A DNA stretch of 64,000 bases from a virus. Its lineage: Duplodnaviria > Heunggongvirae > Uroviricota > Caudoviricetes. The stretch lies in the IMG/VR virus record IMGVR_UViG_2737471993_000002; one strand, written 5' to 3'. The notes under the pieces were generated by a model that saw only the letters and a program-made list of their open reading frames with translations, had not been told where the DNA came from and did no database searches. A program made the position numbers and the translations under genes. This document shows, in pieces, positions 4,436-64,000 of the stretch (within the stretch, counting starts at the first letter, position 1; each line of letters starts with the position of its first letter).

Positions 4436-4527
4436 TGTAGAAAAAAATATTTATATCGGTAAAAATAAGTAGGTACATACTTAATGGTGGGCAAGGATAG
4501 CCCACCAAATCAAGGAGCATATTCAAC

Positions 4528-7500
4528 ATGTGGTACAGGGAAGGTACTATCACATTTACACAGGGCAGCAATACTCTGGTTGGGGCAGGGACAGCCTGGA
4601 ACGTAACAGCTAATGGTGTGTTGCCGGGGATGATCGTCATTGGCCCCGACAATAAGCTGTATGAGATCAAGCGCGTAACCAGTGATACGAACATTGTTCT
4701 CTCAGAACCTTATACCGGCGAAACTCAGTCTGAAGTTCCGTGCCGAATCATTACGACCTATGAAGGCGACTTAACACAGTTTAGCGCGCGCTTTACAGCA
4801 CTAATGTCGCGTATGTCGGCTGATTCCAAGTCCATGCGCAGTTGGTTGACTGCTCTGGATGAGGTGACAATCGAGCGTGAAGACGGTACAGAAGTGACCG
4901 TTAAGCCGCTAATGCAGATCGTCAACGAGCACAACGAAAACGTTGAGTGGTATAAAAATAACACTGACGCGATTGATGCTGCTGGCGACAAAGCTCGTGA
5001 GGCGGCGGCCAGTGCTGCCGCAGCAGCAGAAAGCGCCAATACCGCTGGAGAAAAAGCCTCTCAAGCGTCTCAAAGTGCATCCGCTGCAGAGTCCTCAAAA
5101 AGCGCGGCGGCCACCAGTGCCGGTGCCGCGAAAACGTCTGAAACGAATGCTGCAGCGTCACAAAAATCTGCAGCCACTTCTGCATCCACCGCGACCACGA
5201 AGGCGTCAGAAGCTGCCACCTCAGCCCGGGATGCGGCGGCCTCAAAAGAGGCAGCGAAATCATCAGAAACGAGCGCAGCCTCGAGCGCCAGTAATGCCGC
5301 TTCCTCGGCAACGGCGGCAGGAAATTCCGCGAAGGCGGCAAAAACGTCCGAGACGAACGCCAGGTCTTCTGAAACGGCAGCGGGACAGAGCGCCTCGGCT
5401 GCGGCAGGCTCAAAAACAGCGGCTGCGTCGTCTGCCAGTGCCGCGTCAACAAGTGCCGGGCAGGCCTCAGCCAGTGCCACCGCCGCCGGAAAATCGGCAG
5501 AAAGTGCCGCATCGTCTGCTTCAACAGCCACAACGAAGGCTGGCGAAGCCACTGAACAGGCCAGCGCAGCAGCGAGGTCTGCTTCCGCAGCGAAGACATC
5601 CGAAACGAACGCGAAAGCGTCGGAAACCCGTGCAGAATCCTCAAAAACGGCAGCCGCATCGTCCGCCAGTTCGGCAGCGTCATCGGCATCATCTGCGTCT
5701 GCTTCAAAAGATGAGGCGACCAGACAGGCGTCAGCAGCGAAGGGCAGCGCCACGACGGCATCCACGAAAGCAACAGAGGCGGCAGGCAGTGCGACGGCAG
5801 CATCTCAGAGCAAAACTGCTGCTGAATCCGCTGCGACCCGTGCGGAAGCTGCTGCTGATCGTGCTGAAGAGATTGCCGGTGCAGTTGCGATGGAAGACGC
5901 AAGCCTTACAACTAAAGGTGTTGTGAAACTTAGCAGTGCTGTCGACAGCACCAGTGAATCGCTGGCCGCAACGCCAAAAGCAGTTAAAGTAGTCAATGAC
6001 AATGCGAACAGCAGGGTGCCATCTAACCGAAAAATTAACGGGAAAGCACTGACTGCGGATATCACATTAACGCCGAAAGATATTGGTACTTTAAATTCAA
6101 TAACGATGTCTTTCTCTGGCGGGGCCGGGTGGTTCAAACTGGCTACTGTTACAATGCCACAAGCGAGTTCCATCGTTTACATCGCATTGATTGGTGGCGC
6201 TGGTTACAACGTCGGCTCCCCACATCAGGCAGGCATTTCAGAACTGGTTCTACGAGCAGGCAATGGAAACCCCAAAGGGATTACAGGTGCTTTGTGGAAG
6301 CGTACAGCTGTCGGATTAACGAATTTCGCCTGGATCAACACATCCGGCGATACATATGATATTTACGTTGAGATTGGCAATTATGCGACTCGTGTAAATA
6401 TCCATTGGGATTGTACTGCAAATGCGACAGTTTCTATTTATACATCGCCAACATATTCAGCGAGTAAGCCTTCCAGCGTTACCGATGGTGTTGTTTATAC
6501 GATGTATAGCACACATCAGAAACCGACGCCGTTAGATATTGGAGCACTGCCAACAACCGGAGGAACAGTTTCAGGTCAGTTGTCTGTTACTGGTGGGATC
6601 ACCGGAACATTAAATGGTAATGCAAGTACAGCAACGAAATTGCAGACGGCAAGATCTATCGGTGGAGTTGGTTTCGACGGTTCTGCAAATATCAACCTTC
6701 CAGGTGTAAATACTACGGGTAATCAGAACACCACTGGTAATGCTGCAACTGCTACAAAACTTCAGACGGCAAGAACTATCGGCGGCGTGAGCTTTGATGG
6801 TACTGCGAATATTAATTTGCCAGGTGTTAATACGGCTGGTAATCAGAATACAACGGGCAACGCGGCTACTGCTACGAAGTTGCAGACTGCGCGTACTATC
6901 AATGGGGTGTCGTTTGACGGCTCGGCAAATATTTCCTTGTCGCCAGCAAATATAGGTTGCCCGGCATCTCCTACTGGTTGGTTAACTACAGGAAGTAATG
7001 GCGGAGCAATAACAACAGCACAGTTAGTGACGTTATTGCAAAATAATGGAGCATTTAACACAAAGTCATGGATTGCTCGATGTGCGTGGGCCTATGCCAA
7101 TAGTGCAACCATACCAAATAGTGAAACTGGTTGTGGCGTTATTCCATTGGCAGGAGCTGTTATAGAGGTATTTAATAACGGTAGTAGCTCAAACAATTAT
7201 ACGATCCGTATAACAACGGCCACAACGACGAGTGTCTCTGGTGCTCTCACTAATGCGGAGTTTATCTATGTATTTAATGGCACATATTATTCTCCGGGAT
7301 GGCGAAGAGTATATAACACGAAAAACAAACCAACAGCCTCTGATGTCGGTGCATTACCTCTTACCGGTGGTACATTATCTGGAGGTTTGACATCTTCTGG
7401 CGAGATCATTTCAAAATATGCAAATGGTTTCCGCATTGCTTACGGTAGCTTTGGGTTCTTTATCCGTAATGATGGATCGAACACATATTTCATGCTAACA

Positions 7501-8556
7501 GCATCAGGAGACACATTAGGTTCATGGAACGGTTTGCGACCAATTACAATTAATAATACCAGCGGTGCTGTATCAATTGGTAATGGACTAAATGTGACTG
7601 GTGGCGTAAATGGTAGTTTGAACGGTAATGCTTCAACAGCTACGAAGTTGCAAACAGCGAGAAACATCAATGGTGTTAAGTTTGATGGCTCAGGCGATAT
7701 CAACATTAATACATTGGTATCTCGTGGCCGAGTTACGGCGTTAAGCGGCTCTACTCAAGGCACTGCTGGCATTCAAATGTACGAGGCGTACAACAATAGC
7801 TACCCGACCACGTATGGCAACGTATTGCACATGAAAGGTGCGAGTGCTGCTGGTGAGGGCGAGTTGCTTATTGGCTGGAGTGGTACGAGCGGTGCACATG
7901 CGCCAGTTTTCATTCGCTCACGAAGAGATACCACAGATGCGGCATGGTCAGCGTGGGCGCAGGTATATACTGCTAAGGATTCAATCCCTGGTGTGAATAC
8001 AACCGGTAATCAGAATACTACTGGTAATGCCGCAACAGCCACAAAATTGCAGACAGCAAGGAAAATTGCTGGTGTGGCGTTTGATGGCTCTGCCGATATT
8101 ACTTTGACTGCGGCTAACCTTAATGCCTATACGAAAACAGAGGTAACAAACCTTCTAAGTTCCTATGTGAAGAGCAGTGCTCTTCCAAGTATGACTGTGC
8201 GAACTTCCTCTGTTTCAGGTGGGGATATGGGCATGAGTTTGTCCACATTCATTAGCCACCTAAAATCAAATGGGGCGTTTAGCAAAAGTTATTGGATTGG
8301 CTTTGGCGATGCTATGGGATTCAATGCTGGCAGTATCAACAATATAACGGGATTTGGTGCTGTAGAATTAGCAGAATCTATAATCGAAGTTTTTAATCTA
8401 CCTAACGGTGATTATACAATTCGTTTAACAACGTCACATAAAGCTGACTACGGTGGAGTTACAAACGCAATCCTCGTTTATCACTACCGTAGTAATAGAA
8501 GTCCGTCAGGTCAATGGCTGAAATTTGCAGGTACTGTTGGGGCAACAAGTAACTGA
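4528..8556 (+). CDS. Side tail fibre protein (Stf-like) with Ala/Ser-rich region and C-terminal fibre repeats
   Basis: ATG at 4528 preceded by AAGGAG. Long Ala/Ser/Thr low-complexity segment with KTSETNA-type motifs typical of lambdoid side tail fibres; five copies of GNASTATKLQTAR.I.GV.FDG.ANI..PGVNTTGNQNTTGNAATATKLQTAR. Confidence 0.7.
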   Translation: MWYREGTITFTQGSNTLVGAGTAWNVTANGVLPGMIVIGPDNKLYEIKRVTSDTNIVLSEPYTGETQSEVPCRIITTYEGDLTQFSARFTALMSRMSADSKSMRSWLTALDEVTIEREDGTEVTVKPLMQIVNEHNENVEWYKNNTDAIDAAGDKAREAAASAAAAAESANTAGEKASQASQSASAAESSKSAAATSAGAAKTSETNAAASQKSAATSASTATTKASEAATSARDAAASKEAAKSSETSAASSASNAASSATAAGNSAKAAKTSETNARSSETAAGQSASAAAGSKTAAASSASAASTSAGQASASATAAGKSAESAASSASTATTKAGEATEQASAAARSASAAKTSETNAKASETRAESSKTAAASSASSAASSASSASASKDEATRQASAAKGSATTASTKATEAAGSATAASQSKTAAESAATRAEAAADRAEEIAGAVAMEDASLTTKGVVKLSSAVDSTSESLAATPKAVKVVNDNANSRVPSNRKINGKALTADITLTPKDIGTLNSITMSFSGGAGWFKLATVTMPQASSIVYIALIGGAGYNVGSPHQAGISELVLRAGNGNPKGITGALWKRTAVGLTNFAWINTSGDTYDIYVEIGNYATRVNIHWDCTANATVSIYTSPTYSASKPSSVTDGVVYTMYSTHQKPTPLDIGALPTTGGTVSGQLSVTGGITGTLNGNASTATKLQTARSIGGVGFDGSANINLPGVNTTGNQNTTGNAATATKLQTARTIGGVSFDGTANINLPGVNTAGNQNTTGNAATATKLQTARTINGVSFDGSANISLSPANIGCPASPTGWLTTGSNGGAITTAQLVTLLQNNGAFNTKSWIARCAWAYANSATIPNSETGCGVIPLAGAVIEVFNNGSSSNNYTIRITTATTTSVSGALTNAEFIYVFNGTYYSPGWRRVYNTKNKPTASDVGALPLTGGTLSGGLTSSGEIISKYANGFRIAYGSFGFFIRNDGSNTYFMLTASGDTLGSWNGLRPITINNTSGAVSIGNGLNVTGGVNGSLNGNASTATKLQTARNINGVKFDGSGDININTLVSRGRVTALSGSTQGTAGIQMYEAYNNSYPTTYGNVLHMKGASAAGEGELLIGWSGTSGAHAPVFIRSRRDTTDAAWSAWAQVYTAKDSIPGVNTTGNQNTTGNAATATKLQTARKIAGVAFDGSADITLTAANLNAYTKTEVTNLLSSYVKSSALPSMTVRTSSVSGGDMGMSLSTFISHLKSNGAFSKSYWIGFGDAMGFNAGSINNITGFGAVELAESIIEVFNLPNGDYTIRLTTSHKADYGGVTNAILVYHYRSNRSPSGQWLKFAGTVGATSN

Positions 8557-8758
8557 TTTAGACATTATTTATATGGCTGTGAGGTTTAAAATGCGATCTC
8601 ACAGCCGCAATCATAGGGATATATTAGTGAGTTACTAGATACGAATTTGAACAGCCGTTAAACGGTATATGCATAGGTAGGTAAGTATATACCTATAATT
8701 GAAAGGAGAAGTGTGATATAAATCCGCCATCCCGATTTGACTTTTCATGGAGGAAAAC

Positions 8759-9082
8759 ATGTCGAACGAGATGGCGGGCGTTACAACAGAGCAAGTTGAG
8801 CGTATTGCCGCGATCGTTGCTCGGGAGGTTGTTGGCAAATTAGGTAAAGAGCTACGTGAAGAAATTGGCCAGGAGGTCAATGATCAGCTGAAAACCTACT
8901 TTGGTGATATGACCCCGGCGCAACATAGTATTCAACACTCCAATCTGGACAAACTCCTTAACCGGTTAGATTCCATCTCAAGTGGGTTCTTTGGCGGCAT
9001 TGTTTCTAAAATAACGTCGTTCATTATTACCGCACTGCTTTTGGGGTTAGCCGCGTATGGCGTAAAAAGTGGACTGCAATAA
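8759..9082 (+). CDS. Small tail-anchored membrane protein (possible holin/antiholin)
   Basis: Internal ATG at 8759 with GGAGGA 4 nt upstream (track start 8747 also possible). Single C-terminal hydrophobic helix ITSFIITALLLGLAAYGV; sits directly upstream of the putative lysis genes. Confidence 0.25.
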   Translation: MSNEMAGVTTEQVERIAAIVAREVVGKLGKELREEIGQEVNDQLKTYFGDMTPAQHSIQHSNLDKLLNRLDSISSGFFGGIVSKITSFIITALLLGLAAYGVKSGLQ

Positions 9083-9095
9083 CAGGAGATCAAGG

Positions 9096-9788
9096 ATGAA
9101 GACTCCGAGAGGCATTCGTAATAATAACCCCGGTAATCTTGATAAAGGATCACCGTGGCAAGGTCTGGTTGCGAATCCAGACGAACCGCGCTTTTGCACG
9201 TTTAAAGACCCTGTTTGGGGGATTCGTGCGCTGGCGGTGACTCTAATTACCTACCACGACAAACGTCGCGCAAAAGACGGCTCAAGTATCGATACCATTC
9301 GTGAAGTTATTGAACGTTGGGCACCGCCGAATGAAAACAACACTGACGCCTACATTAATGAGGTGTCTAAAGCCGTTGGTGTAACCGCAGACATGATCAT
9401 CGATCTGCATGATTACGACATCCTTCGACCTTTGGTTGAGGCAATCATTCGCCACGAGAATGGTCGAGGTCCACTAAAAACGCTGAACACCTGGTATGCG
9501 GCAGAAGTTATTGAGGAAGGTCTGCGTCGAGCTGGCGTCGTTAAGCCGGTGAAAACCGTGAAGGCTGTTCCTGTAACTAAAGAAACCGCTGGCGCAACTG
9601 TTACAGCAGGTATTGGTCTGGCGCAGCTGGCCGATGTTATGCCGCAGGTTTCCGCTGCTATGGATAAAGCACAAGGTCATATCTCTAGCGGGGATACAGT
9701 ACGCATCATCTTCGGTATTGCCACTATTGTTGTGGCTGGATTTATCGCCTGGTCGCAGGTAAGAAGACACCAGAAAGGGATGGTCTAA
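9096..9788 (+). CDS. Putative cell-wall hydrolase / endolysin-like protein (uncertain)
   Basis: ATG at 9096 with AGGAG upstream (track start 9069 is GTG). N-terminal GIRNNNPGNL motif recalled from muramidase-like phage proteins; position between membrane protein and spanin-like genes. C-terminal hydrophobic segment is atypical for an endolysin. Confidence 0.3.
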   Translation: MKTPRGIRNNNPGNLDKGSPWQGLVANPDEPRFCTFKDPVWGIRALAVTLITYHDKRRAKDGSSIDTIREVIERWAPPNENNTDAYINEVSKAVGVTADMIIDLHDYDILRPLVEAIIRHENGRGPLKTLNTWYAAEVIEEGLRRAGVVKPVKTVKAVPVTKETAGATVTAGIGLAQLADVMPQVSAAMDKAQGHISSGDTVRIIFGIATIVVAGFIAWSQVRRHQKGMV

Positions 9789-9789
9789 T

Positions 9790-10041
9790 ATGCTAGGCAG
9801 CCTGATGACAAAGCTAAAAGTTGCTTTGATTACGCTGGCTGCCGTTCTTTTCGTTCTTGTCGGCGCTTACACGATGGGCGGAAATGCGGCGCGACGAGCA
9901 ATGGAAGAGAAGGCAAAACAGGAAGACAGAAAACGACTTCAAAGCACAGTGGATGTCAAAAATGAAACGGTTAATGAAGTGCGGCAAAAAGATGCCTCTG
10001 GTGTTCATCGCGAGCTGCTTGATAAATGGGTGCGTGATTAA
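9790..10041 (+). CDS. i-spanin (Rz-like) candidate
   Basis: N-terminal transmembrane helix (KVALITLAAVLFVLVGAY) followed by charged coiled-coil periplasmic region; start overlaps preceding stop (TAATATG). Confidence 0.35.
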   Translation: MLGSLMTKLKVALITLAAVLFVLVGAYTMGGNAARRAMEEKAKQEDRKRLQSTVDVKNETVNEVRQKDASGVHRELLDKWVRD

Positions 10042-10189
10042 GACGCAGGCTCCAGGCGTGCTATTCTGCGATGCTGCAAATCCTATCTATGTGAGTAGAG
10101 AGGATTTTATGACTGAGGAAACGGAGCGACAGTTGCTTATCCACAATACGATAGGTGAAAGGCTGTGTGAGTGGGGGCACCTGAACTGA
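9953..10189 (+). CDS. o-spanin (Rz1-like) lipoprotein candidate, overlapping the i-spanin in the +1 frame
   Basis: Internal Met of track ORF 9857-10189 gives MSKMKRLMKCGKKMPLVFIAS-C with lipobox-like IASC; starts inside the Rz-like gene in another frame and extends beyond it. Confidence 0.3.
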   Translation: MSKMKRLMKCGKKMPLVFIASCLINGCVIKTQAPGVLFCDAANPIYVSREDFMTEETERQLLIHNTIGERLCEWGHLN

Positions 10190-10413
10190 GGCGATGATTG
10201 ATGAGTGGTCTCAGTTTACCTTTTATCCTAAAGATGGCATCTTCACTCATATACACGCCTGTTCACTCAAGCTCATGTTGAATCATTTAGTAATTTGATG
10301 TAGATTTATTAGGCATCCACGTAAGTGGGCACATACAGGCTACGCATCCTCGTAGCCTTCAACCCCGAGAGGGGTGCCGCAATGACACTTGTGTTAACGG
10401 CTAAGGTGGACAC

Positions 10414-10797
10414 ATGCTGAACGAGAAACGTTCTATACAAACTATTCGCGATTGCACGAGTATTATCGAGACTCATGTGCTGAATCAGCACAAGCTTGAA
10501 GTACGTAAGCTCAATAATGACGCTATTGAACCGGAAGACTCACGCTTCATCGTTACCTTCAAAGACGATGTTGAGCGCGCTGGTGCAAGCGTGAAGCCAT
10601 TAGCTGAAGCAATTTACCTGAATGGTCGTGTTCGTTTTGTAGTCAAGCCAGCTAAACAGTACCCTGAGCTGTCTCGTTTTATCGAGGCTTTTTCGGAGGT
10701 TATTGAACATTCTATTCGCCGCTTCTTACGCAATCATGGTAGCATTGTCAGCACGGTTAAGGCTGATGATTCTGCTACAAAATGGCTCCTACACTAG
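10414..10797 (+). CDS. Hypothetical protein
   Basis: ATG with AAGGTGGA Shine-Dalgarno; 127 aa; no recognisable motif. Confidence 0.5.
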   Translation: MLNEKRSIQTIRDCTSIIETHVLNQHKLEVRKLNNDAIEPEDSRFIVTFKDDVERAGASVKPLAEAIYLNGRVRFVVKPAKQYPELSRFIEAFSEVIEHSIRRFLRNHGSIVSTVKADDSATKWLLH

Positions 10798-11534
10798 ATA
10801 GCGCATATTCAAAAGATCTAAGCGAGTTTCCTCATAAAGGGGAGACTCGTGTTGTTCGTTTTGGCTTTCTTATCAATGAAGCCTCCCTCTATAAAATCTC
10901 AGAAATTGAAATCATTGAACCAGAAGATGACATTTGCCTGTATGTCTCTATGGAACGTGTAGGTGCGCGCAACCAAGGCGACCTGAGCGAATTCATCTTA
11001 GATCGAGCGGATGAAGATGCCCCTGAAGAAGAGATTATCAAAGAGGTGCTCCAGTCCGGGCTTCTGGACGAAAACAAAAATACGATCGCTGGTAGGATAG
11101 CTCTGCGTGAATATAGTTTTGTTGAAGACGGTAATGAGATCGAATGTTACCAGGTAGCTGGTGTCGAAACTGTCAGAGAGCGTCGTCAGCGAGGATTGTG
11201 TCACCGTACCTATCTCTTTCTTCTTCATTGGTATGAGCATTTAGTCTGCGACGATACACAAACCATTCCTGGTGCTAAGATCTGGGCAGGGCCTCTCATG
11301 CGAACCGGCGATGTGCGTATATACAATGCCAAAACAGAAACGTTCGAAGATGTGTTAGGTGAGTACGGGATGGGGAAAGAAACCGGATTTTTGCCGTGGA
11401 ACAGAGGATTGTTGCTTGATGCAGAGTTAAGCTCTTGGCTCCCAAACAAAGTGCAAGTTAACGTTCAGAAATTTATCGTACTTATCATCTCCCGCAAAAC
11501 AAGAACTCCAGTAGGTTTATACCTAAAAGATTAA
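10782..11534 (+). CDS. Hypothetical protein
   Basis: 250-aa ORF overlapping upstream gene end; followed by a clear terminator. Confidence 0.5.
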   Translation: MAPTLDSAYSKDLSEFPHKGETRVVRFGFLINEASLYKISEIEIIEPEDDICLYVSMERVGARNQGDLSEFILDRADEDAPEEEIIKEVLQSGLLDENKNTIAGRIALREYSFVEDGNEIECYQVAGVETVRERRQRGLCHRTYLFLLHWYEHLVCDDTQTIPGAKIWAGPLMRTGDVRIYNAKTETFEDVLGEYGMGKETGFLPWNRGLLLDAELSSWLPNKVQVNVQKFIVLIISRKTRTPVGLYLKD

Positions 11535-11538
11535 AAAT

Positions 11539-11563
11539 CAGGCGACTTTGGTCGCCTTTTTTG
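11539..11563 (+). terminator. Rho-independent terminator
   Basis: GGCGAC-TTTG-GTCGCC hairpin followed by TTTTTT immediately after stop at 11534. Confidence 0.7.
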
Positions 11564-11660
11564 TTAACAGCCATTAATTCTCGCCTAAAAATTCTAAGGC
11601 AGCACCTACCATTTAACCTTTACACCACAGCCGTAGGCATTTAGGCTATATCACATATAA

Positions 11661-11678
11661 GAAAACAAGTTGTTTCAG
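11661..11678. promoter_or_regulatory. AAACAAgtTGTTT palindrome upstream of parA-like gene
   Basis: Palindrome GAAAACAAGTTGTTTCAG; same half-site (AAACAAnTTGTTTAAA) recurs upstream of genes at 15447, 43155 and 54608. Confidence 0.4.
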
Positions 11679-11710
11679 ACGATAATTATATACGCAAAGG
11701 GAACTCTCCA

Positions 11711-12379
11711 ATGACCAAGATCTTTGTGGTTGGCGGCACAAAGGGCGGGCCTGGCAAATCCACCGTTGCCCAGCAAATTGCCGTTTGCCTGAAAGTCAAA
11801 AAGAAGAAGAAGGTTTATATTACCGATATAGATATTCAGCGCACGACAACGAGCTGGTGTGAAGACCGTCGACAGAACGAAGACCTTGAGCTGATTCCTT
11901 TTGCATACGTTCAGGATGACATCATTAAGCACCTAAAATCGCTTCAGGGTAGAGCTGAGTTTGTAGTGGTAGATGCTGGTGGCTTCGACTCCGAAATTCA
12001 GCGACAAGCGATGCTGATGGCTGACGTTATCATTATCCCGCTGCGTCCTAAGCGTCGTGATTTGAAATCTTTACGTGACATCGATCCTATTATCGACAAT
12101 GTTCGCAATGTAAACGATAAAGTGAAGGTCCGCGCGGTCATGAACCAGTGCCCGGCTTTGCCATCACAAGTGTCTCGCATTCTGGCGGCTAAAGAGATTG
12201 TTGAGACGTTTGGCATCGAGTCTGCGCCAGTCAATCTATATAACCGCAACGTCTATGATGATGCGGAAGAGTCTGGTCGTTCTATCTTTGAAATGACCGG
12301 TAGCGAGCGCGACAAAAAGGCGGAAGCCGAGTTTGAAGAATTTGTAGATTATCTGTTGAGTCTGGAGGAAGAAGAATAA
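11711..12379 (+). CDS. parA: ParA-like partition ATPase (small ParA/ParF type)
   Basis: Deviant Walker A GGTKGGPGKST near N-terminus; 222 aa; followed by overlapping small basic gene (TAATG). Confidence 0.7.
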   Translation: MTKIFVVGGTKGGPGKSTVAQQIAVCLKVKKKKKVYITDIDIQRTTTSWCEDRRQNEDLELIPFAYVQDDIIKHLKSLQGRAEFVVVDAGGFDSEIQRQAMLMADVIIIPLRPKRRDLKSLRDIDPIIDNVRNVNDKVKVRAVMNQCPALPSQVSRILAAKEIVETFGIESAPVNLYNRNVYDDAEESGRSIFEMTGSERDKKAEAEFEEFVDYLLSLEEEE

Positions 12380-12738
12380 TGTCCATGAAAATGGGTGACC
12401 TAGCAAAGCGCAAAGAGCCTGATGCACCGGCTAAGAACACAACTCCTTTGCGCCAACCAGTCAGACCACAGGGACGCCCGACTCGTGGCAAAGAGAAAAT
12501 TAAAAGCCGCACAATGTCACTGGAAGACGAATACTTCGAACTGCTGGAGATGATGAAGTTCATCCCTCGCTTCGAGAAGTTCACTCGTTCTGACGTGATT
12601 CGAGCAGCCATTTTCCATCTGGCAGAGAAGTCACCGCAGGAAATCGAGGACATCGTGAAGCTTAACGAGGCGATCACAGCTGCCGACGTTACGATGCGTA
12701 CCGATGAAATTAAACGAGAGTTGATGAAGAAAGGTTGA
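12379..12738 (+). CDS. Small basic DNA-binding partner of ParA (ParG/ParB-like, ribbon-helix-helix candidate)
   Basis: 119 aa, Lys/Arg-rich disordered N-terminus, C-terminal SDVIRAAIFHLAE-type RHH-like segment; translationally coupled to the ParA-like gene. Confidence 0.4.
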   Translation: MSMKMGDLAKRKEPDAPAKNTTPLRQPVRPQGRPTRGKEKIKSRTMSLEDEYFELLEMMKFIPRFEKFTRSDVIRAAIFHLAEKSPQEIEDIVKLNEAITAADVTMRTDEIKRELMKKG

Positions 12739-12789
12739 TTATATTGGGCGTTTGTTACGCCCAATATATGAATTAAAGGATTGATACTA

Positions 12790-14484: not shown

Positions 14485-14494
14485 GTATTCATGA

Positions 14495-14545
14495 CCTGTT
14501 TCTGTATATAAATAATAAGTAACTTATTAAATATACGGAAGCAGG
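14495..14545. repeat. Copy A of duplicated long hairpin module (CCTGYTTCTGTATAT...ATATACGGAAGCAGG)
   Basis: 15-bp inverted arms around an AT-rich loop, directly after stop of the KAP NTPase gene; near-identical element at 62321-62385; downstream ~40 nt later a shared CCA(C/-)NAGAAC..CTCCCTTCC block. Confidence 0.6.
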
Positions 14546-14662
14546 TCTTTCAAAAGATACCCACCAGAACAACTCCCTTCCGTTTCCACTTCCAAAAACT
14601 GCCACCAATCGCTATCATCAGCTCATTGTGATAAGTAAGTAACTACCTACCAGGTGAGCCAC

Positions 14663-15403: not shown

Positions 15404-15411
15404 CTAATACT

Positions 15412-15432
15412 AGAAAACAATTTGTTTAAAAA
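15412..15432. promoter_or_regulatory. AAACAATTTGTTTAAA palindrome upstream of helicase gene
   Basis: AGAAAACAATTTGTTTAAAAAAC; member of the recurring AAACAAnTTGTTT motif family. Confidence 0.4.
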
Positions 15433-15446
15433 ACAAAGGAAAGCAC

Positions 15447-19918: not shown

Positions 19919-19958
19919 TTTTTGTAAGAATACTTTCATCCGTTAGCTAGGAGTTGGT

Positions 19959-23409: not shown

Positions 23410-23420
23410 AAACACAATAA

Positions 23421-23439
23421 TAAGTATTTACTTACTTAT
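23421..23439. promoter_or_regulatory. Palindromic operator-like motif (TAAGTATTTACTTACTTAT)
   Basis: Same half-sites as the recurring motif family; lies just after the stop at 23409. Confidence 0.35.
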
Positions 23440-26332: not shown

Positions 26333-26370
26333 CAACAAATGATAGGTGTGTACATATCTATCATTTGTTG
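26333..26370. promoter_or_regulatory. Perfect 13-bp inverted repeat (operator-like) upstream of glutaredoxin gene
   Basis: CAACAAATGATAG-n12-CTATCATTTGTTG; half-site shares TGATAG/CTATCA with the motif at 38448. Confidence 0.5.
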
Positions 26371-26874: not shown

Positions 26875-27978
26875 ATGAAAAATAGCTTTGACAGAGCACG
26901 CGCTGCGGAGAACACCTCAAAAGAGGCGATTGAGTATCTCGAAAGAGCATCTCAAATGCAGGCCGTTATGATCTCGCAGGTTAGCAATGATATGAGATTC
27001 TCGGACGCATTCATGTTATTCACTCGCTTATCTCTGCTGATAACCAGACGTCGGCCAGAGATCGCTGTTCATTGTATTTTGATACATGTTTTGCCGCACA
27101 TTGCTGATGTAAAAGTAAGTGACATTAATAGGTTCATGGTGAACCAACTGGTCAACCCTCTAATATTGGATGGCAAAATTGTTATGGGCCGCCGCGTTTT
27201 CTCTCTGATGAAGCAGTTCCTTAGCTGGTGCGCCTTCCAGGGGATGATAGACGTGTCACCGCTAAACGATATGTCACTAAACAAAGTTGCCGGTGGCGCA
27301 AAGCCCACACCTCGCGAGCGGAAGCTGACCGACGCAGAGGTATGGGTGTTCTGGAATATATGGGACTACTTCAATGTGTGTGCTGGTACAAAATGGGCGG
27401 CCAGGCTATGTCTTGTATCCGCAAGACGACCTGACGAAGTACTGCGGGCTAAAAAAAGTGAGTTCAATCTTAAGCGTGGGGTTTGGAATCAAGGCAAGAG
27501 GAACAAATCTGCCCGTGAGCATTCTCTGCCTTTAAGCTCATTAATGCGCACTTGTATTGAAGAGTTGTTCGAATATGGTAAAGACAGCCAGTGGCTCGTG
27601 CCTTCGAATAAAAAAATCGGGAAAGACCTTCCTATGTCTAAAGTGGCAATAGCCCAGGCATTACGTCGTATTCTGGAACGACCAGAACTGATGGAGCTTG
27701 AGCCATTTACACCCCGAGATTTGCGCCGTACTGCGCGTAGTTACTTCCCAGCATTAGGCATAAGCCAGGAGGTATCACGTAAAATCATGAACCACAGTCT
27801 TGAGGGGATAGATCGGGTCTACGACCGGCACGATTATATGGACGAGATGCGAGACGCCTTAGAAAGTTTCTCGACGTACATCGCATCAATCGTAGAGCAA
27901 CCGGATTTAGACGAAATTGACCACAAATTTAAGGGAGATCGTCTATCAACAGAGCTTATTCGTGTAAATTTTTCATAG
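26875..27978 (+). CDS. Tyrosine recombinase / integrase
   Basis: Conserved boxes ARRPDEVLRA (R..E), RDLRRTARSYF (box II R), MNHSLEGIDRVYDRHDY (H...Y catalytic region); 367 aa. Confidence 0.7.
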   Translation: MKNSFDRARAAENTSKEAIEYLERASQMQAVMISQVSNDMRFSDAFMLFTRLSLLITRRRPEIAVHCILIHVLPHIADVKVSDINRFMVNQLVNPLILDGKIVMGRRVFSLMKQFLSWCAFQGMIDVSPLNDMSLNKVAGGAKPTPRERKLTDAEVWVFWNIWDYFNVCAGTKWAARLCLVSARRPDEVLRAKKSEFNLKRGVWNQGKRNKSAREHSLPLSSLMRTCIEELFEYGKDSQWLVPSNKKIGKDLPMSKVAIAQALRRILERPELMELEPFTPRDLRRTARSYFPALGISQEVSRKIMNHSLEGIDRVYDRHDYMDEMRDALESFSTYIASIVEQPDLDEIDHKFKGDRLSTELIRVNFS

Positions 27979-28359
27979 AGACTTTATGGCCTCAACAACC
28001 TTTTGTGATGCGCCTTTCTCTTTACCGAATCGCTCGTTATATGCAGCAAGAACCTGTTTTTCGTCCTCGTTAAGAGGAGCAGTGCCTTCTTTGTATAAAA
28101 ATGCTGCGAGTTCGGGTTGGCGTTCTTCCAGCACCATCATCATAAGACGACTTGGCTCAATGCCCAGTGCCAGCGCCAGCGGACGAACCTTATCGATAGG
28201 CAAAGGAATTTTGCCGCTTTTAATTAAAGAAAGGTTGTTGGCGTTTTTATACCCAATTGTTTTGGCTATCTGGGCCTGGCTCATAGGTGAGGATTCAATC
28301 AACCCTGCGATAAAAGCAGCGTAGCGACTTTCTATAAATTCAATCTTGTTATCAGACAT
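27973..28359 (-). CDS. HTH transcriptional regulator (Cro/CI-XRE type)
   Basis: MSQAQIAKTIGYKNANNLSLIKSGK helix-turn-helix; convergent with recombinase; divergent AT-rich promoter region at 28360-28610. Confidence 0.6.
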   Translation of the reverse strand: MSDNKIEFIESRYAAFIAGLIESSPMSQAQIAKTIGYKNANNLSLIKSGKIPLPIDKVRPLALALGIEPSRLMMMVLEERQPELAAFLYKEGTAPLNEDEKQVLAAYNERFGKEKGASQKVVEAIKSL

Positions 28360-28610
28360 GGTTACAACCTTTGCGCGTTCAATTCTCTCTGGTAAGTGCT
28401 TACCGATATTACATCAAAGGTTAGGGTTGTAAAGCTATTATCATTTTTTTCGATAGGCACTTAAAAGACCGGTTAAAGGCCATTGCACGGAGAAAAATTA
28501 GCCCAAAACAGGTAAGAAAATCAACTTGCATATGATATGAATGTATTCAGTATTGATACAAATTTTAGTAGTATTCCTTACCATAGTATAAGTTAGAATG
28601 GATTGATTGA

Positions 28611-31045: not shown

Positions 31046-31068
31046 CGATAAGTAACCACTTACGATAG
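31046..31068. promoter_or_regulatory. Palindromic operator-like motif (CGATAAGTAACCACTTACGATAG)
   Basis: Motif-family member ~57 nt upstream of start at 31126. Confidence 0.4.
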
Positions 31069-31125
31069 ATAATGATATATTTATATAAGAAGTTGAACGC
31101 TCATTAGAAAACAAAGGAAAAACGC

Positions 31126-37980: not shown

Positions 37981-38011
37981 ATACAGATTTTATAAGTAGG
38001 AACCTATTAGA

Positions 38012-38447: not shown

Positions 38448-38478
38448 TGATAGATAATAAGTAAGTACTGATCTATCA
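38448..38478. promoter_or_regulatory. Palindromic operator-like motif (TGATAGATAATAAGTAAGTACTGATCTATCA)
   Basis: Outer arms TGATAGAT/ATCTATCA enclosing TAAGTA..TACT core; upstream of SSB gene. Confidence 0.45.
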
Positions 38479-41966: not shown

Positions 41967-42028
41967 TCTCTTGAAAATATATAAGCACTTACTTATTATT
42001 TTCGCATAACAACCACATAGGAAAACAC

Positions 42029-43911: not shown

Positions 43912-43950
43912 GTTTACAGTAAAATTTATATAAGTTAGTGTCTACCTATC

Positions 43951-47432: not shown

Positions 47433-47456
47433 ATAAATAGGTATATACTTACTTAT
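47433..47456. promoter_or_regulatory. Palindromic operator-like motif (ATAAATAGGTATATACTTACTTAT)
   Basis: Motif-family member upstream of the Mre11-like gene. Confidence 0.4.
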
Positions 47457-52118: not shown

Positions 52119-52139
52119 TGATAGGTAAGTGCTTATCTA
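52119..52139. promoter_or_regulatory. Palindromic operator-like motif (TGATAGGTAAGTGCTTATCTA)
   Basis: Motif-family member ~45 nt upstream of nrdA; followed by hairpin/terminator. Confidence 0.45.
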
Positions 52140-52146
52140 TTAACAT

Positions 52147-52177
52147 GGGCCACTATATTTAGTGGCCCTCTTTATTT
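52147..52177 (+). terminator. Rho-independent terminator / attenuator upstream of nrdA
   Basis: GGGCCACT-ATATTT-AGTGGCCC followed by T-rich tract. Confidence 0.6.
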
Positions 52178-56697: not shown

Positions 56698-56836
56698 TTG
56701 TAGGTAGTTATCTATCTATGTATATTGTGTTGGCGCGTTAAATTCCTGAAACAACTATTCGTTTTTGGTGGCCTATGGCCACCATTTTTTTATCTATCTG
56801 GCCTTGTTCTCTCAATAAATGTAAACTCACGTAATG

Positions 56837-56854
56837 AATAAGTGGTTACTTATC
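56837..56854. promoter_or_regulatory. Palindromic operator-like motif (AATAAGTGGTTACTTATC)
   Basis: Motif-family member immediately upstream of thyA; track's GTG start at 56842 falls inside it. Confidence 0.4.
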
Positions 56855-61671: not shown

Positions 61672-61694
61672 AATAGGTATTTACTTACCTATCG
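61672..61694. promoter_or_regulatory. Palindromic operator-like motif (AATAGGTATTTACTTACCTATCG)
   Basis: ATAGGTA..TACCTAT arms, 10 nt upstream of methyltransferase start. Confidence 0.45.
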
Positions 61695-62297: not shown

Positions 62298-62320
62298 TTT
62301 GTTCTGGCGTCTGTAATTAG

Positions 62321-62385
62321 CCTGCTTCTGTATATATAAATAACTACATATTAATTATTAATATACGGAAGCAGGCTGTTTTGTA
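62321..62385. repeat. Copy B of duplicated long hairpin module
   Basis: CCTGCTTCTGTATAT...ATATACGGAAGCAGG directly after methyltransferase stop; 3' arm identical to copy A, 5' arm differs by one base that converts a G-U wobble into a Watson-Crick pair. Confidence 0.6.
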
Positions 62386-62482: not shown

Positions 62483-62713
62483 ATGTCATACCCGACTAAT
62501 GTCGTTGCGCTCGTAGAGAGCGATTTTCTGGCCCAGGCTCGTGAAATGATGAAAGATCGTGAGCAGGCTTTCAACTTGTACGAATGGGCAATTAAGTGCT
62601 TGCATCTTGGCGAGCATCGCGAACTTGTTGAACAGCTTTTAGGTGAGTTGATCAATGAGGTGTTTGCCTTGAATGTTCAACTACATGGTAGAGAAAATAA
62701 TCAATCACAATGA
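62483..62713 (+). CDS. Hypothetical small protein
   Basis: ATG at 62483 with AGGAA SD; 76 aa. Confidence 0.45.
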   Translation: MSYPTNVVALVESDFLAQAREMMKDREQAFNLYEWAIKCLHLGEHRELVEQLLGELINEVFALNVQLHGRENNQSQ

Positions 62714-63298
62714 TAGATAAGTACAAACTATTCATAAGGTGAATTGTAAGTGCTAAGATCTGATAGTTTCCAGTCGTAGACTGGAGACTCGACCTGATGG
62801 GTGGGGGTAAGCGTCACTGGCGTCAGGTTTAAAAAAGCTCACTACCAGCGTAGAACTGGTGCCGTTTAGGTGTCGGGGAAGGGGGAACCAAAGTGAGCGG
62901 AGACAAGGGTCACTTTATGATTGTCGAGTCTGGGGTGTTTCGAGAGGTTGAATCCAGTACTCCCCTTCATAAAGTGTGGGAAGATCTCGGTTCTGGGGTG
63001 CTGTCATCCATAACTTCCCAAGTCTAAGCTGGCAGTAGACTTAGACCATAACTTTTCAGGTTATGAAACGACCAGGTTGGTGAGGGATTTTTATACTCAC
63101 CTCCCTGGGAGAGTATTACCTGAAAAGACAACCTCTCACTTCGTTCGAGGTGAACTTCACTCACTTCGTTCGTTCAGTTCAGGTTTATAAAAACCTGTTC
63201 TGGGAAGTAATTTGTTTATTTTAATAATTATTAACACGCACGCGTGTGCGCACGCGCGAGGAAAAAAAATCGGCGCGGCGCTTGATTCAGGAGTTTAT

Positions 63299-63892
63299 AT
63301 GACGACGAAGACACCAGCCCGATCGCAAGAAAAAACTCGCAAAAAAGCCAAAAACAAAAATTCTCCCCGCACCAATTCCACAACGCCTGTCGTAGAGTTC
63401 AATCCCCAGCTTAAAACCGTGAAAATCTTCAGTGATGGCTCTTGCCTTAAAAATCCGGGTGGCCCGGGCGGTTACGGTATAGTTCTCCAGTATCGTGGTG
63501 AGGAACGCGAGTTCTCAGATGGTTTTCATAGCACCACCAATAACCGCATGGAGATGATGGGGGCACTTATCGGGCTGGAGCGTTTGAAATATCCATGCAA
63601 CGTTATTTTGCACTCTGATAGCCAGTATCTGAAAAACGGCATGACACAGTGGATGAAATGGTGGAAACGCAATGGATGGGTGACTTCTGACAAAAAACCG
63701 GTAAAGAATGTTGATCTGTGGAAGCGTCTGGATGAGGCTGCAAGTCGACATAATGTTCGCTGGAAGTGGGTTAAAGGTCACGCCGGGCATCGTGAAAATG
63801 AAATATGTGATCGACTCGCGAAGATCGCAGCTTTTTCCGCAGCAGATATGCCTCACAAGAAAGATATTGGTTTTGTTTACAACAAGCAGTAA
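63299..63892 (+). CDS. rnhA: Ribonuclease HI
   Basis: ATG at 63299 with CAGGAG SD (track start upstream is unlikely). Basic N-terminal extension then RNase H motifs [40 protein letters not shown]. Confidence 0.85.
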
Positions 63893-64000
63893 GTAAGTGT
63901 TTACCTATCATTTTAAATCATGTATCTTATCGGCGTCAGGATGACAATGTGTCGGTAAGACACAGTTCCAGGATGGAACGAGAAAGGCGGCTGGCAATCG

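Follow-up and report, generated by a model that had tools for sequence, protein, structure and literature searches.

The intergenic DNA of an SSU5-like phage-plasmid carries a recurring 20-bp palindrome, ATA(A/G)GTAAGTACTTAC(C/T)TAT, probably an operator at which a 128-residue XRE-family protein acts as prophage repressor in phage-plasmids of this type. The DNA analysed here, a stretch of 64,000 nucleotides (the window), is 97–98% identical to Escherichia phage Cyrano.

In the proposed network, a dimer of the XRE protein would bind the palindrome, and each operator would lie on or beside a sigma-70-type promoter reading into an operon of lytic genes, whether for head, tail, lysis, replication, recombination or nucleotide metabolism. 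Occupied sites would block the binding of RNA polymerase, while those downstream of a predicted start, or between co-directional genes, could block elongation instead. Repression would keep the phage silent during plasmid maintenance, and the weaker core GGTAAGTGCTTACC at the start of the XRE gene may provide negative autoregulation. XRE binding, repression by binding and the reality of the predicted promoters are what we infer from sequence comparison. The initial annotation had suggested one phage-encoded regulator over the tail, replication, recombination and nucleotide-metabolism operons, a reading that the evidence on the XRE protein and the motif supports, with lysis genes included.

Sequence and placement of the palindrome

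Within the palindrome a TA step recurs every 4 nt, and the previously described half-sites, (G)ATA(A/G)GTA and TAC(T/C)TAT(C), are correct parts of this 20-bp unit. All 14 sites listed in the initial annotation are present in the sequence, a few bases from the coordinates given, as is the palindrome at 26333-26370, which contains a 16.8-bit site. Thirteen of the 14 score 14.6–26.5 bits; the one near 37991 is weak, with an identical Cyrano orthologue. Three sites were absent from that list, two of them strong, at 14631 and 43930, and one weaker, at 62713 (Table 1). Start codons follow the sites at distances between 1 and about 126 nt (median about 45), a wider range than the 10–80 nt given earlier.

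Table 1 Palindrome sites, the XRE gene and its predicted promoter in the window (all promoters are predictions)
Feature	Coordinates	Location	Score (bits)	Conservation and neighbouring signals
Site ATAAGTAGGTACATACTTAA	4465..4484	upstream of tail-fibre gene (4528)	23.7	kept in Cyrano and SSU5
Site GTAGGTAAGTATATACCTAT	8677..8696	upstream of holin gene (8747)	25.0	kept in 4 genomes although upstream flank unrelated; conserved TGnTATAAAT extended -10 at 8712-8723
Site ATAAGTAAGTAACTACCTAC	14631..14650	between parA operon and CYRAN_31 homologue, directly before the latter	23.9	downstream of predicted start, because a conserved TTCCAA-17-TATSAT promoter lies upstream
Site ATAAGTAGATACATACTTAA	19898..19917	upstream of operon 19959-23409 (ligase and 71-aa wHTH-like protein)	20.0	followed by conserved TGTAAGAAT extended -10
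Site ATAAGTATTTACTTACTTAT	23420..23439	upstream of tRNA cluster (24188-24745)	26.0	predicted TTTACT-17-TAAGAT, -35 within motif
Motif-like site ATAGGTGTGTACATATCTAT	26342..26361	within palindrome 26333-26370, upstream of glutaredoxin gene	16.8	inverted-repeat arms 19 nt each, 89% complementary
XRE-family HTH protein, 128 aa, candidate repressor	27973..28359 (minus)
Motif core GGTAAGTGCTTACC	28391..28404	predicted XRE transcription start	11.6 as 20-mer at 28388	match limited to inner 14 bp
Predicted sigma-70 promoter of XRE gene	28406..28433 (minus)			TTTACA (28433-28428), 16 nt, TAATAT (28411-28406)
Two overlapping weaker sites ATAAGTAACCACTTACGATA, ATAGATAATGATATATTTAT	31048..31084	upstream of MoxR/CobS-like gene (31126)	14.6, 14.8	locus conserved in 4 genomes
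Weak site TAAGTAGGAACCTA	37993..38006	upstream of uvsY-like gene	8.8 in 20-bp matrix	matches N4 regular expression
Site ATAAGTAAGTACTGATCTAT	38457..38476	upstream of gp32-like SSB gene (38561)	25.1	kept in 4 genomes
Site ATATATAAGCACTTACTTAT	41977..41996	spacer of predicted promoter TTGAAA-17-TATTAT	23.9	promoter score 11.4-11.8, kept in 3 genomes; site preceded by terminator-like hairpin after recA-like gene
Site ATAAGTTAGTGTCTACCTAT	43930..43949	1 nt 5' of ATG at 43951	20.3	kept in 4 genomes; predicted TTTACA-17-TAGTAT in three relatives, -10 within motif; in window -10 is TAGTGT and promoter ranks second
Site ATAGGTATATACTTACTTAT	47437..47456	upstream of sbcD-like gene (47569)	24.6	followed by extended -10 (TGnCATAAT) in SSU5 and pJN2-26
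Site ATAGGTAAGTGCTTATCTAT	52121..52140	upstream of nrdA (52186)	26.5	followed by GC hairpin 52147-52168, then T-run; predicted promoter TTGATA-17-TAACAT, score 10.9, conserved
Site GTAGGTAGTTATCTATCTAT	56700..56719	directly 3' of mazG-like gene	16.3	predicted TTGTAG-17-TATATT, -35 within motif
Site ATGAATAAGTGGTTACTTAT	56834..56853	upstream of thyX	19.3	orthologous sites in 4 genomes
Site ATAGGTATTTACTTACCTAT	61673..61692	upstream of adenine methyltransferase gene (61704)	25.5	conserved TTGCCA-17-TGnAAAAAT ends at motif, so predicted start within motif; -35 is TTGCTA in SSU5
Weaker site ATAGATAAGTACAAACTATT	62713..62732		15.3	orthologous sites in Cyrano, SSU5, pJN2-26
Site GTAAGTAAGTGTTTACCTAT	63889..63908	3' of RNase H gene	25.5	kept in 4 genomes along with TATCAT and TGTATCTTA blocks

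The regular expression TARGT-N4-ACYTA has 11 matches in the window, 9 of them intergenic, whereas 200 dinucleotide shuffles lead one to expect 0.125. An N8 spacing gives 9 matches against 0.12 expected, and the N2 and N6 spacings give none in the window. The 20-bp weight matrix finds 20 window sites of at least 12 bits compared to 0.18 in shuffled controls; 19 of these are intergenic in a window with 13.5% intergenic DNA (binomial 5e-16). The matrix was trained on relatives, one of them near-identical to the window, while the regular-expression test and a blind EM run are independent of this training. In separate EM runs on the diverged sequences of the window, SSU5 and pJN2-26, the palindrome emerges as the top intergenic motif. 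The roughly 20 copies in the window correspond to about 27 per whole genome (27 in Cyrano, 27 in SSU5 and 29 in pJN2-26), about 88% of them intergenic. Twenty-three orthologous loci retain the motif while their flanks have diverged; since orthologues from three genomes do not count as independent observations, the effective sample is about these 23 loci.

Predicted promoters around the sites

Promoter-like signals near the sites average 8.1 bits on the gene (plus) strand versus 6.3 bits on the minus strand, with random windows at 4.2 bits. The plus strand is better at 50 of 62 sites (Wilcoxon 3.6e-7), and the 14 scores that reach 10 bits or more are all on the plus strand. All of these promoters are predicted, with moderate scores, and the DNA is AT-rich. 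A convincing promoter was not found at the tail-fibre site, the terminase/portal junction or CYRAN_91, and a sigma-70 scan of positions 1-20000 called none at the four sites there. Sequence comparison nevertheless indicates that the palindrome overlaps conserved, predicted sigma-70-type promoters that read into the downstream genes. Measured against those -10 and -35 hexamers that orthologues share, its register varies from about -43 to about +14, which fits a repressor operator and not the box of a fixed-geometry activator. The earlier idea of a phage-specific promoter class thus stands in that the sites lie on promoters, but these resemble ordinary sigma-70 promoters sharing a common operator at variable register.

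The XRE protein as candidate repressor

Two candidate regulators had been named initially, the XRE protein and the 71-residue wHTH-like protein (22758-22973). We favour the former on the basis of the core at its own promoter, its distribution and the covariation of its recognition helix with the motif; the latter is less likely. The XRE protein matches Pfam HTH_19 with E=7.8e-4, which misses the gathering threshold, and phrog_8 (transcriptional regulator, 1.3e-11). Its AF2 model (pLDDT 74) has an XRE/Cro-like N-terminal domain with an HTH of that type and matches Stl, SPC32H Rep, SinR, C.AhdI, HigA and 434 Cro. The Cyrano homologue, CYRAN_45, is expressed in lysogens: in strain LF82, where Cyrano resides as a plasmid prophage, it is listed as the putative repressor and lies 10-fold above the local prophage background (PMC9928086).

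Upstream sequences of the gene were compared in 15 IMG/VR loci, sampled from 55 recovered, whose XRE proteins are 66–100% identical to that of the window. Both promoter hexamers are kept in diverged loci with variable flanks, and the motif core, directly after TAATAT, shows little or no variation across the 10 distinct upstream sequences among these loci. We predict that this core is an autoregulatory operator.

The XRE family is found mainly on contigs of about 100–115 kb. In PLSDB, the counts of XRE and of the gp32-like core gene nearly coincide by genus: Klebsiella 348/347, Escherichia 230/224, Enterobacter 92/92, Yersinia 63/63 and Salmonella 49/49. The XRE gene is present in essentially every SSU5-like plasmid and absent from SSU5; among phage records it was not found in just SSU5 and one 84-kb record. 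Compared with its nearest plasmids, SSU5, described as virulent (PMC5427195), is without about 3 kb holding the integrase and, where annotated, one further gene. It retains its 27 sites without the XRE gene, and their fit to the consensus is no poorer than in Cyrano. This leaves two explanations: a recent deletion, or a sequence that is constrained for another reason too, one likely reason being that parts of the motif double as -35 or -10 hexamers.

Across lineages, sequence differences in the XRE recognition helix are accompanied by corresponding differences in the dispersed palindrome. The helix N(A/P)NNLSLIKSGK is common to the E. coli, Salmonella and Klebsiella types, which also have the same motif. 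The P0032 type (helix YQNQVSFIKSGK) has TATGTA half-sites, with T at position 3 in 4 of 8 sites compared to none of 61 others (Fisher 8e-5; n=8 sites for this type), and its XRE-promoter site retains the common GGTAAG. The Acinetobacter plasmid CP143347 (helix NQNMVSFIVRGK) carries the palindrome ATTAGTAAGCGCTTACTAAT, and CP155459 (helix RPNVLSMIKSGE) carries AATCAGTCAGTACTGACTGATT, with copies at its own XRE promoter; both Acinetobacter lineages thus have a motif-like site in the promoter region of their XRE gene. As whole genomes have diverged between these four lineages, other proteins co-vary as well.

Other readings and known systems

The palindrome is near-perfect, is often followed by T-rich sequence and in several copies by GC hairpins, and lies almost always between co-directional genes in transcribed orientation, as might be expected of a DNA cruciform or of an RNA hairpin serving in termination, processing or stabilisation. 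We consider such a structural role highly improbable. At the mirrored positions 3/16, the sole freely variable pair, 28 Watson–Crick pairs are observed against 27.9 expected, and the combinations (A:C 17, G:C 15, A:T 13, G:T 11) are those that independence predicts, with no compensatory variation. Compensatory changes are found in the neighbouring GC hairpins, so a pairing constraint on the motif would have been visible. A structure would, moreover, not require the same specific letters to be conserved at every locus, as they are here. Because its two halves vary independently, the palindrome is best read as the site of a protein that binds duplex DNA, rather than as a hairpin. Could that protein be an activator, with the motif substituting for the -35 element of a dedicated lytic promoter class? 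In phage P1, the 9-bp box AAGTNACTT for Lpa plays this part at late promoters, and the half-sites here equal those of the P1 -22 boxes (AAGT, ACTT), as seen in the six late promoters that the P1 record annotates within its first 50 kb. A good -35 hexamer is missing at many sites, the motif's right end overlaps a -10-like TATnAT at 21 of 62, the four sites without a promoter call fit the same picture, and SSU5 retains the motif fully without the XRE gene. An activator of this kind is nonetheless quite unlikely, as it needs a fixed geometry: the P1 box is always 4 nt from the -10, whereas the register here varies by more than 50 nt, and the half-site spacing is N1 in P1 but N0, N4 or N8 in our palindrome. 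Several sites fall in the spacer or over the start of complete, conserved sigma-70 promoters (TTGAAA-17-TATCAT, TTGATA-17-TAACAT, TTGCCA-17-TGnAAAAAT), and the core at the XRE promoter covers the predicted start of a good sigma-70 promoter, a repressing position. A tblastn search for Lpa gave no homologue in pJN2-26, SSU5, Cyrano or the window (best E = 1.0).

It is also unlikely that the motif is the operator of another regulator, namely an FljA-like protein (CYRAN_114 homologue), the 71-residue wHTH-like protein or one of two ParB-N-domain proteins acting as a KorB-like global silencer. The FljA-like protein (PF03614, 1e-80) and both ParB-like proteins, the latter known here by domain assignment, are kept in Cyrano, SSU5 and pJN2-26, and are therefore present in the XRE-less genome that retains the sites. 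The FljA-like gene occurs in 835 plasmids, with a breakdown by genus close to that of the core gene. In Cyrano and pJN2-26 the ParB-like operon has a motif site just 5' of it, and the 71-residue protein has, by eye, a winged-helix-like sequence pattern. The FljA-like gene is located outside the window. FljA acts on fliC mRNA; a reverse-complement palindrome with independent halves points instead to a symmetric dimer on duplex DNA, and a motif-like site was not found upstream of the FljA-like gene (best 3.8 bits). Neither the FljA-like nor the wHTH-like protein has a match in the Acinetobacter plasmids, which carry the same kind of dispersed palindrome together with an XRE protein. The wHTH-like protein is, genus by genus, found in many fewer plasmids than the core gene (194 versus 347 in Klebsiella, 43 versus 63 in Yersinia). 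Its gene lacks its own site and sits inside a motif-controlled lytic operon, and the LF82 genes listed at least 5-fold above background do not include the Cyrano homologue.

With the XRE protein as the probable repressor, the proposed network would be of the same kind as the global prophage repressor networks of the P1 C1 operators and of the stoperators of mycobacteriophage L5.

The palindrome and the elements that carry it

Between positions 30000 and 50000, the window is 97.8% identical to Escherichia phage Cyrano, the plasmid prophage of E. coli LF82 (OV696614.1), and about 79% identical to Salmonella phage SSU5 and to Klebsiella phage-plasmids. Its gene order parallels Cyrano genes 20 to ~82, with ~90% of the genes on the plus strand: modules for tail tip, tail fibre, lysis, parA, helicase/primase, ligase, tRNAs and integrase with an XRE-family gene are followed by cobT/cobS-like genes, dnaE, T4-like recombination genes, repA, sbcCD, nrdAB, thyX and others. 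The gp32-like SSB gene, used here as core gene of the group, occurs in more than 800 PLSDB plasmids of Klebsiella, E. coli, Enterobacter, Salmonella and Yersinia pestis.

All palindromic sites listed in the initial annotation are present in the sequence. The core in register, TARGT-N4-ACYTA, occurs 11 times in the window against 0.125 expected from 200 dinucleotide-preserving shuffles, and the N8 spacing nine times against 0.12, while N2 and N6 do not occur; this 4-nt phasing arises because the underlying unit is longer. EM motif searches with random seeds, given only intergenic regions and run separately on the window, SSU5 and the Klebsiella phage pJN2-26, returned the same top motif each time, a perfect 20-bp palindrome with the consensus ATAAGTAAGTACTTACTTAT (R at position 4, Y at position 17) and a TA every four bases. 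With the corresponding weight matrix, 20 window sites reach 12 bits or more, where shuffles give 0.18, and 19 of the 20 are intergenic, although intergenic DNA makes up 13.5% of the window (binomial 5e-16). An equal frequency in coding and intergenic DNA, which the initial annotation had set against its own regulatory reading, is thus clearly not what is observed. Its list overlooked the strong sites 14631 and 43930 and included the weak 37991, and the long palindrome that it described at 26333-26370 holds a 16.8-bit copy of the motif. The recurring palindrome is therefore confirmed and extended.

Cyrano and SSU5 carry 27 sites each and pJN2-26 carries 29, about 88% of them intergenic, and 23 loci are orthologous in two to four genomes. 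In the structural part these loci are found ahead of or within the portal gene, past the capsid and tape-measure genes, and ahead of the tail, tail-fibre and holin genes; elsewhere they precede the helicase operon, the ligase operon, tRNA, cobS, SSB, sbcD, nrdA, thyX, methylase, parB-like and further genes. At many of them the 20-mer is kept although the upstream flank cannot be aligned. Such dispersal of one site in many copies, mostly intergenic and before lytic genes, is a trait of global prophage-repressor networks.

Motif-like sequences in coding DNA are few. Among them are 36635 and a perfect N4 core, TAGGTttatACCTA, within the 3' end of the ORF 10782-11534, directly beyond which lies a terminator-like hairpin. 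Several genes of the window are without a counterpart in the Cyrano annotation: a cold-shock protein gene (CSD domain, 4e-33), which has a full-length match to the cspA thermoregulator 5' UTR (Rfam RF01766, 185.7 bits), and the genes for a putative AbiC-like protein, a Sel1-repeat protein and a KAP-family NTPase, which lack a motif site and are likely cargo or defence. At the interval between the MoxR-like ATPase gene and dnaE, the Acinetobacter plasmid NZ_CP143347.1 has an annotated sigma-70-family sigma factor, and the enterobacterial elements have just a 67-aa ORF.

Features discussed in the text; positions refer to the window unless another sequence is named
Feature	Position	Strand	Remark
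Palindrome in promoter spacer	41977		predicted TTGAAA-17-TATSAT; same register at a second locus, inside the portal gene
Palindrome over -35	several, including 23420, 19898, 47437		predicted TTGTAA-17-TAGAAT; TTTACT-17-TAAGAT; extended -10 TGnAAGAAT or TGnCATAAT
Palindrome over -10	Cyrano 9018		tail gene; predicted TTGAAT-18-TATACT
Palindrome over start	61673		predicted TTGCCA-17-TGnAAAAAT
Palindrome downstream of start	14631		predicted TTCCAA-17-TATSAT
Palindrome at about -43	8677		holin; predicted TGnTATAAAT
XRE promoter, -35 TTTACA	28433-28428	-	predicted
XRE promoter, -10 TAATAT	28411-28406	-	predicted
Motif core at XRE promoter	28404-28391		GGTAAGTGCTTACC
70-aa gene	28611-28823		divergent from XRE gene
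71-aa wHTH-like protein	22758-22973		
tRNA cluster	24188-24745		Asn, Tyr, Thr, Ser; motif site 23420 ahead
Element upstream of holin gene	8712-8723		TGTGATATAAAT
Perfect N4 core in coding DNA	11512-11525		TAGGTttatACCTA
Terminator-like hairpin	11540-11557		
GC-rich hairpin after motif site	4485-4507		
GC-rich hairpin after motif site	52147-52168		
GC-rich hairpins after motif sites	L003, L004, L007		past capsid, tail, tape-measure genes
Second-class inverted repeat	14493-14547		
Second-class inverted repeat	62319-62377		
Cold-shock protein gene	36339-36757	-	no gene annotated at corresponding Cyrano place
444-aa protein, weak putative AbiC match	24941-26275	-	no matching Cyrano annotation at same place
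Sel1-repeat protein	18042-19238	-	no matching Cyrano annotation at same place
KAP-family NTPase	12781-14484	+	no matching Cyrano annotation at same place
FljA homologue	L002 (Cyrano sequence) 37781-38302 = Cyrano 100780-101301		outside window
Sigma-70-family sigma factor	L067 (NZ_CP143347.1) 15101-15766		Acinetobacter plasmid

A duplex-DNA site at predicted promoters

A hairpin or cruciform, be it a terminator or a REP-like element, is rejected as the basis of the palindrome: mirrored positions vary independently and pairing is not kept by compensatory change. At the variable pair (position 4 R, position 17 Y) we count A:C 17, G:C 15, A:T 13 and G:T 11, that is, 28 Watson-Crick pairs against 27.9 expected under independence, and no other mirrored pair of the motif shows an excess of pairing. 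A pairing signal is detectable in these data, because GC hairpins lying 3' of some sites do show compensatory changes between genomes. Since co-variation at mirrored positions is absent, the two halves are read independently, as by a symmetric dimer on duplex DNA.

We then considered the placement of the motif relative to promoters. A fixed -10 at the right motif end is rejected, as a -10-like TATnAT overlaps that end in only a third of the strong sites (21 of 62) and is nearly as common on the mirror strand (13 of 62). A standard sigma-70 scan called no promoter at the first four sites, and a custom scan for -35/-10 pairs and extended -10 elements was used instead. The best promoter score near the sites averages 8.1 bits on the gene strand and 6.3 bits on the opposite strand, compared to 4.2 bits in random genome windows; the plus strand scores higher at 50 of the 62 sites (Wilcoxon 3.6e-7). 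A score of 10 bits or more is reached 14 times on the plus strand and never on the opposite one. The best predicted promoters are conserved among orthologues even with diverged spacers, a conservation to be read in the light of three genomes (Cyrano, SSU5, pJN2-26) that are not independent samples, and the palindrome sits on them in very different registers. Relative to the predicted start, the motif spans about -43 to +14, with all registers inside the RNA polymerase footprint. Sites over promoters or in the transcribed path at no fixed distance, here by prediction, are again found in repressor networks; for these predicted promoters, the absence of a fixed geometry is the behaviour of a repressor operator, unlike that of an activator box. 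Sites with no convincing promoter, among them 4465 and the one at the terminase/portal junction of Cyrano, may act as roadblocks.

Several further sequence elements were observed close to motif sites. GC-rich hairpins begin 1-10 nt past several of them, with sequences that vary between genomes and pairing that is conserved; the hairpins past the capsid gene and ahead of nrdA lead into a T-run and resemble intrinsic terminators between the operator and the next gene. All four genomes retain the block ttgttttcgttgagacgcgactgtttgaac ahead of the tRNA cluster. Upstream of the holin gene, TGTGATATAAAT is kept in Cyrano, and the SSU5 and pJN2-26 versions have one or two changes with the TATAAA core intact. 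By reading it is an extended -10, and it also resembles the T4 late-promoter consensus TATAAATA; the element that holds it has many T4-like replication and recombination genes.

A second repeat class consists of an inverted repeat with 17-nt arms, RCCTGYTTCTGTATAT and ATATACGGAAGCAGGY, around an AT-rich centre of 21-25 nt that resembles the motif (14-19 bits). Cyrano, SSU5 and pJN2-26 have three copies per genome in conserved places: past the parA operon, past the adenine methylase gene and immediately before terS. Candidate roles of this repeat are a site for a recombinase, for packaging or for partition, and a terminator that acts in both directions.

The XRE-family protein as the likely regulator

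The gene of the 128-aa XRE-family protein (XRE; window 27973-28359, minus strand; CYRAN_45 in Cyrano) has a predicted sigma-70 promoter with a 16-nt spacer, and the inner 14 bp of the motif lie directly after its -10. The promoter hexamers and the core GGTAAGTGCTTACC are conserved in 10 distinct upstream sequences with varying surroundings, taken from 15 IMG/VR loci sampled out of 55 recovered, in which XRE is 66-100% identical to that of the window. An operator over the start of a regulator's own promoter is the classical layout of negative autoregulation, and no motif-like site was found upstream of any other candidate regulator examined.

The protein matches Pfam HTH_19 with E=7.8e-4, below the curated cut-off, and the PHROG family phrog_8, 'transcriptional regulator', with 1.3e-11. 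Sequence searches of XRE and of the 71-aa winged-helix-like protein against solved structures gave nothing useful, leaving XRE with no sequence-level relative among them. Its AlphaFold model (pLDDT 74; HTH region 85-89) was matched by Foldseek with probability 1.00 to C.AhdI, 434 Cro and repressor, SinR, HigA and Stl (1.5-2.5 A over 61-68 aligned columns); the modelled N-terminal domain also resembles SPC32H Rep and C.BclI, and the rest is helical. Within the 128 residues there is no match to a peptidase domain of the LexA/cI type (S24, RecA-mediated self-cleavage), and induction would probably have to proceed differently, perhaps through an antirepressor.

The distribution of XRE follows that of the system. 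Its homologues lie mainly on contigs of ~100-115 kb, and the family, borne by roughly 1000 plasmids, is located mainly in SSU5-like plasmids and phage records. In PLSDB, XRE and the core gene are found in nearly the same numbers in each genus: Klebsiella 348/347, Escherichia 230/224, Enterobacter 92/92, Yersinia 63/63, Salmonella 49/49 and Citrobacter 25/25. Among phage records, XRE is present in all except SSU5 and one 84-kb record. In LF82, the host of the Cyrano plasmid prophage, CYRAN_45 is transcribed 10-fold over the local prophage background, and most of the remaining expressed prophage genes listed are minus-strand genes lacking the motif (PMC9928086). Networks of this kind include a repressor that is expressed during lysogeny and whose promoter itself bears a copy of the site.

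SSU5, described as virulent (PMC5427195), keeps full-quality sites without XRE. Compared with the plasmids closest to it (93% identical), SSU5 is missing ~3 kb in this region, including the integrase. The simplest explanations for its intact sites are a recent deletion and the use of parts of the palindrome as -35/-10 hexamers.

The recognition helix of XRE (about residues 38-50) and the motif vary together. Four helix types pair with four motif variants, which have the architecture T-nAGT-nAGT-ACTn-ACTn-A in common and differ in their specificity letters, and in each of the two Acinetobacter lineages the XRE promoter region contains copies of the motif proper to that lineage. In cluster A phages, the repressor co-evolves with its site motif from one immunity group to the next. 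The four helix types compared here are a small sample, and their pairing with the motif variants is a correlation, because the lineages differ genome-wide. For the rare E. coli lineage termed P0032, T at position 3 is found in 4 of 8 sites against 0 of 61 elsewhere (Fisher 8e-5, with the tested positions neutralised in the matrix); this result rests on the matrix scan, since blind EM on a 20-kb locus of this type, and on the matching 20 kb of the window, gave no usable motif from too few regions. No PLSDB plasmid with the exact P0032-type XRE was found (best match 80.5% identical).

Recognition helices of XRE and the motif variants paired with them
Lineage	XRE helix	Motif
E. coli, Salmonella/Enterobacter and Klebsiella types (XRE down to 56% identical overall)	N(A/P)NNLSLIKSGK	ATA(A/G)GTAAGTACTTAC(C/T)TAT
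P0032 type	YQNQVSFIKSGK	TATGTA half-sites at orthologous loci
Acinetobacter CP143347 (XRE 38% identical)	NQNMVSFIVRGK	ATTAGTAAGCGCTTACTAAT, top intergenic motif
Acinetobacter CP155459 (XRE 48% identical)	RPNVLSMIKSGE	AATCAGTCAGTACTGACTGATT

Other proteins of these elements might be considered as the binder. The initial annotation had named the 71-aa protein beside XRE, and by eye its sequence does have a winged-helix-like pattern; it loses ground by lying inside a motif-controlled operon and by having been found in far fewer plasmids per genus than the core gene (Klebsiella 194 vs 347, Yersinia 43 vs 63), with no match in any Acinetobacter plasmid. The 70-aa gene divergent from XRE is rejected as a possible Cro: its product has an acidic sequence poor in basic residues, in which inspection by eye reveals no evident HTH pattern, and it has no family annotation, only close homologues. 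Outside the window there are also two proteins with a ParB N-terminal domain (ParB_N) in Cyrano, SSU5 and pJN2-26, and a full-length homologue of FljA (PF03614, 1e-80), the Salmonella repressor of phase-1 flagellin. The latter is conserved in the same three genomes and in 835 plasmids and may act on host flagellin or as a phage regulator; its gene has no motif site of its own and no Acinetobacter matches.

A different view of the site itself would make the palindrome both the XRE operator and an indispensable component of the lytic promoters, recognised by RNA polymerase itself or by a second phage factor. The 4-nt-phased quarter-sites could offer two overlapping binding registers, and such a dual function, if true, would explain why virulent SSU5 retains all 27 sites. 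A change of immunity specificity would then have to rewrite ~27 promoters at once, as the Acinetobacter lineages appear to have done, and we regard the dual function as unlikely.

XRE is the only candidate present wherever the system is seen. The motif core at its own promoter, its co-distribution with the core gene and the joint variation of helix and motif favour it over the other candidate of the initial annotation. The proposal of a single phage-encoded regulator is therefore supported, this regulator likely being XRE, with predicted binding to the palindrome and predicted repression.

Relation to known repressor networks

In the openly searchable literature we found no description of lysis-lysogeny control in SSU5-like phage-plasmids, and searches with the motif strings returned nothing relevant. 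The system is a so far undescribed case, within a widespread group of plasmids, of a regulatory design known from elsewhere. Published work reports that phage-plasmids, including SSU5-like ones, carry resistance genes. Our analysis maps the regulon, names a candidate for the master repressor, predicts its autoregulatory promoter and adds natural specificity variants; this information may serve to induce or cure SSU5-like plasmids or to foresee mutual immunity among them.

Peptidase-less repressors of the XRE/Cro-cI type (SPC32H Rep, SaPI Stl, SinR) match the XRE model in their five-helix N-terminal HTH and helical C-terminal part, and by analogy a palindromic operator of 14-20 bp would suit an XRE dimer; the number of operators is far above that of lambdoid switches. 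In plasmid RK2, a palindromic site is repeated at many operons at varied promoter distances and silences them. The global KorB/KorA regulon of RK2 (PMC11790492) is similar in its silencing of many plasmid operons, and differs in that KorB is a ParB-family CTPase clamp.

The repressor of mycobacteriophage L5 acts at more than 20 operators or 'stoperators' genome-wide, at promoters and in short gaps between co-directional early and late genes, silencing the prophage (PMC9283540). The dispersed silencing sites of this cluster A repressor, gp71, resemble the arrangement found here, and both systems have a lytic relative with a deletion, SSU5 here and D29 in the L5 system, a lytic deletion derivative of a temperate parent (PMC5712189). 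The L5 sites are, however, asymmetric 13-bp sequences whose action depends on orientation, and a monomer binds them through two domains, whereas the 20-bp palindrome implies a symmetric XRE dimer. Strict L5-type stoperators, asymmetric sites oriented along transcription, are rejected: the site is palindromic, with only weak flank asymmetry (an A-tract on the left, TATnAT on the right). The hosts here are Gram-negative and the element is a plasmid prophage, unlike L5, and a block of elongation is here a candidate mechanism only.

P1 is likewise a plasmid prophage of enterobacteria, and its single repressor C1 has many scattered operators, all of them on promoters; those annotated in the P1 record are Oref, Omat, Ossb, Oc4, OrepL and Olpa. 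The P1 operators are 17-bp and asymmetric, and C1 is unrelated to XRE proteins. Late genes of P1 depend on Lpa for activation and are not under direct C1 control, whereas here the same site precedes structural and early genes. The P1 Lpa box is a palindrome just upstream of or overlapping the -10, with multiple copies before morphogenesis and lysis genes (PMC10695390). Its -22 box AAGTNACTT shares the letters AAGT/ACTT with the present half-sites, and the likeness is confined to them: the P1 box is 9 bp long with a single central base and always stands 4 nt from the -10, in contrast to 20 bp, N0/N4/N8 phasing and a variable register here. Having extracted and compared the P1 late promoters, we reject an Lpa-type activator, as the geometry differs and an Lpa homologue was not found, either when P1 Lpa was compared by tblastn with the window, Cyrano, SSU5 and pJN2-26 (best E 1.0) or in a Pfam scan (PF25716) of ~30 proteins, searches that might miss a very distant relative.

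Because its site is palindromic and its protein has an XRE-type HTH, the system is not a strict member of either the L5 or the P1 C1 family. The L5 repressor and P1 C1 are its closest functional parallels.
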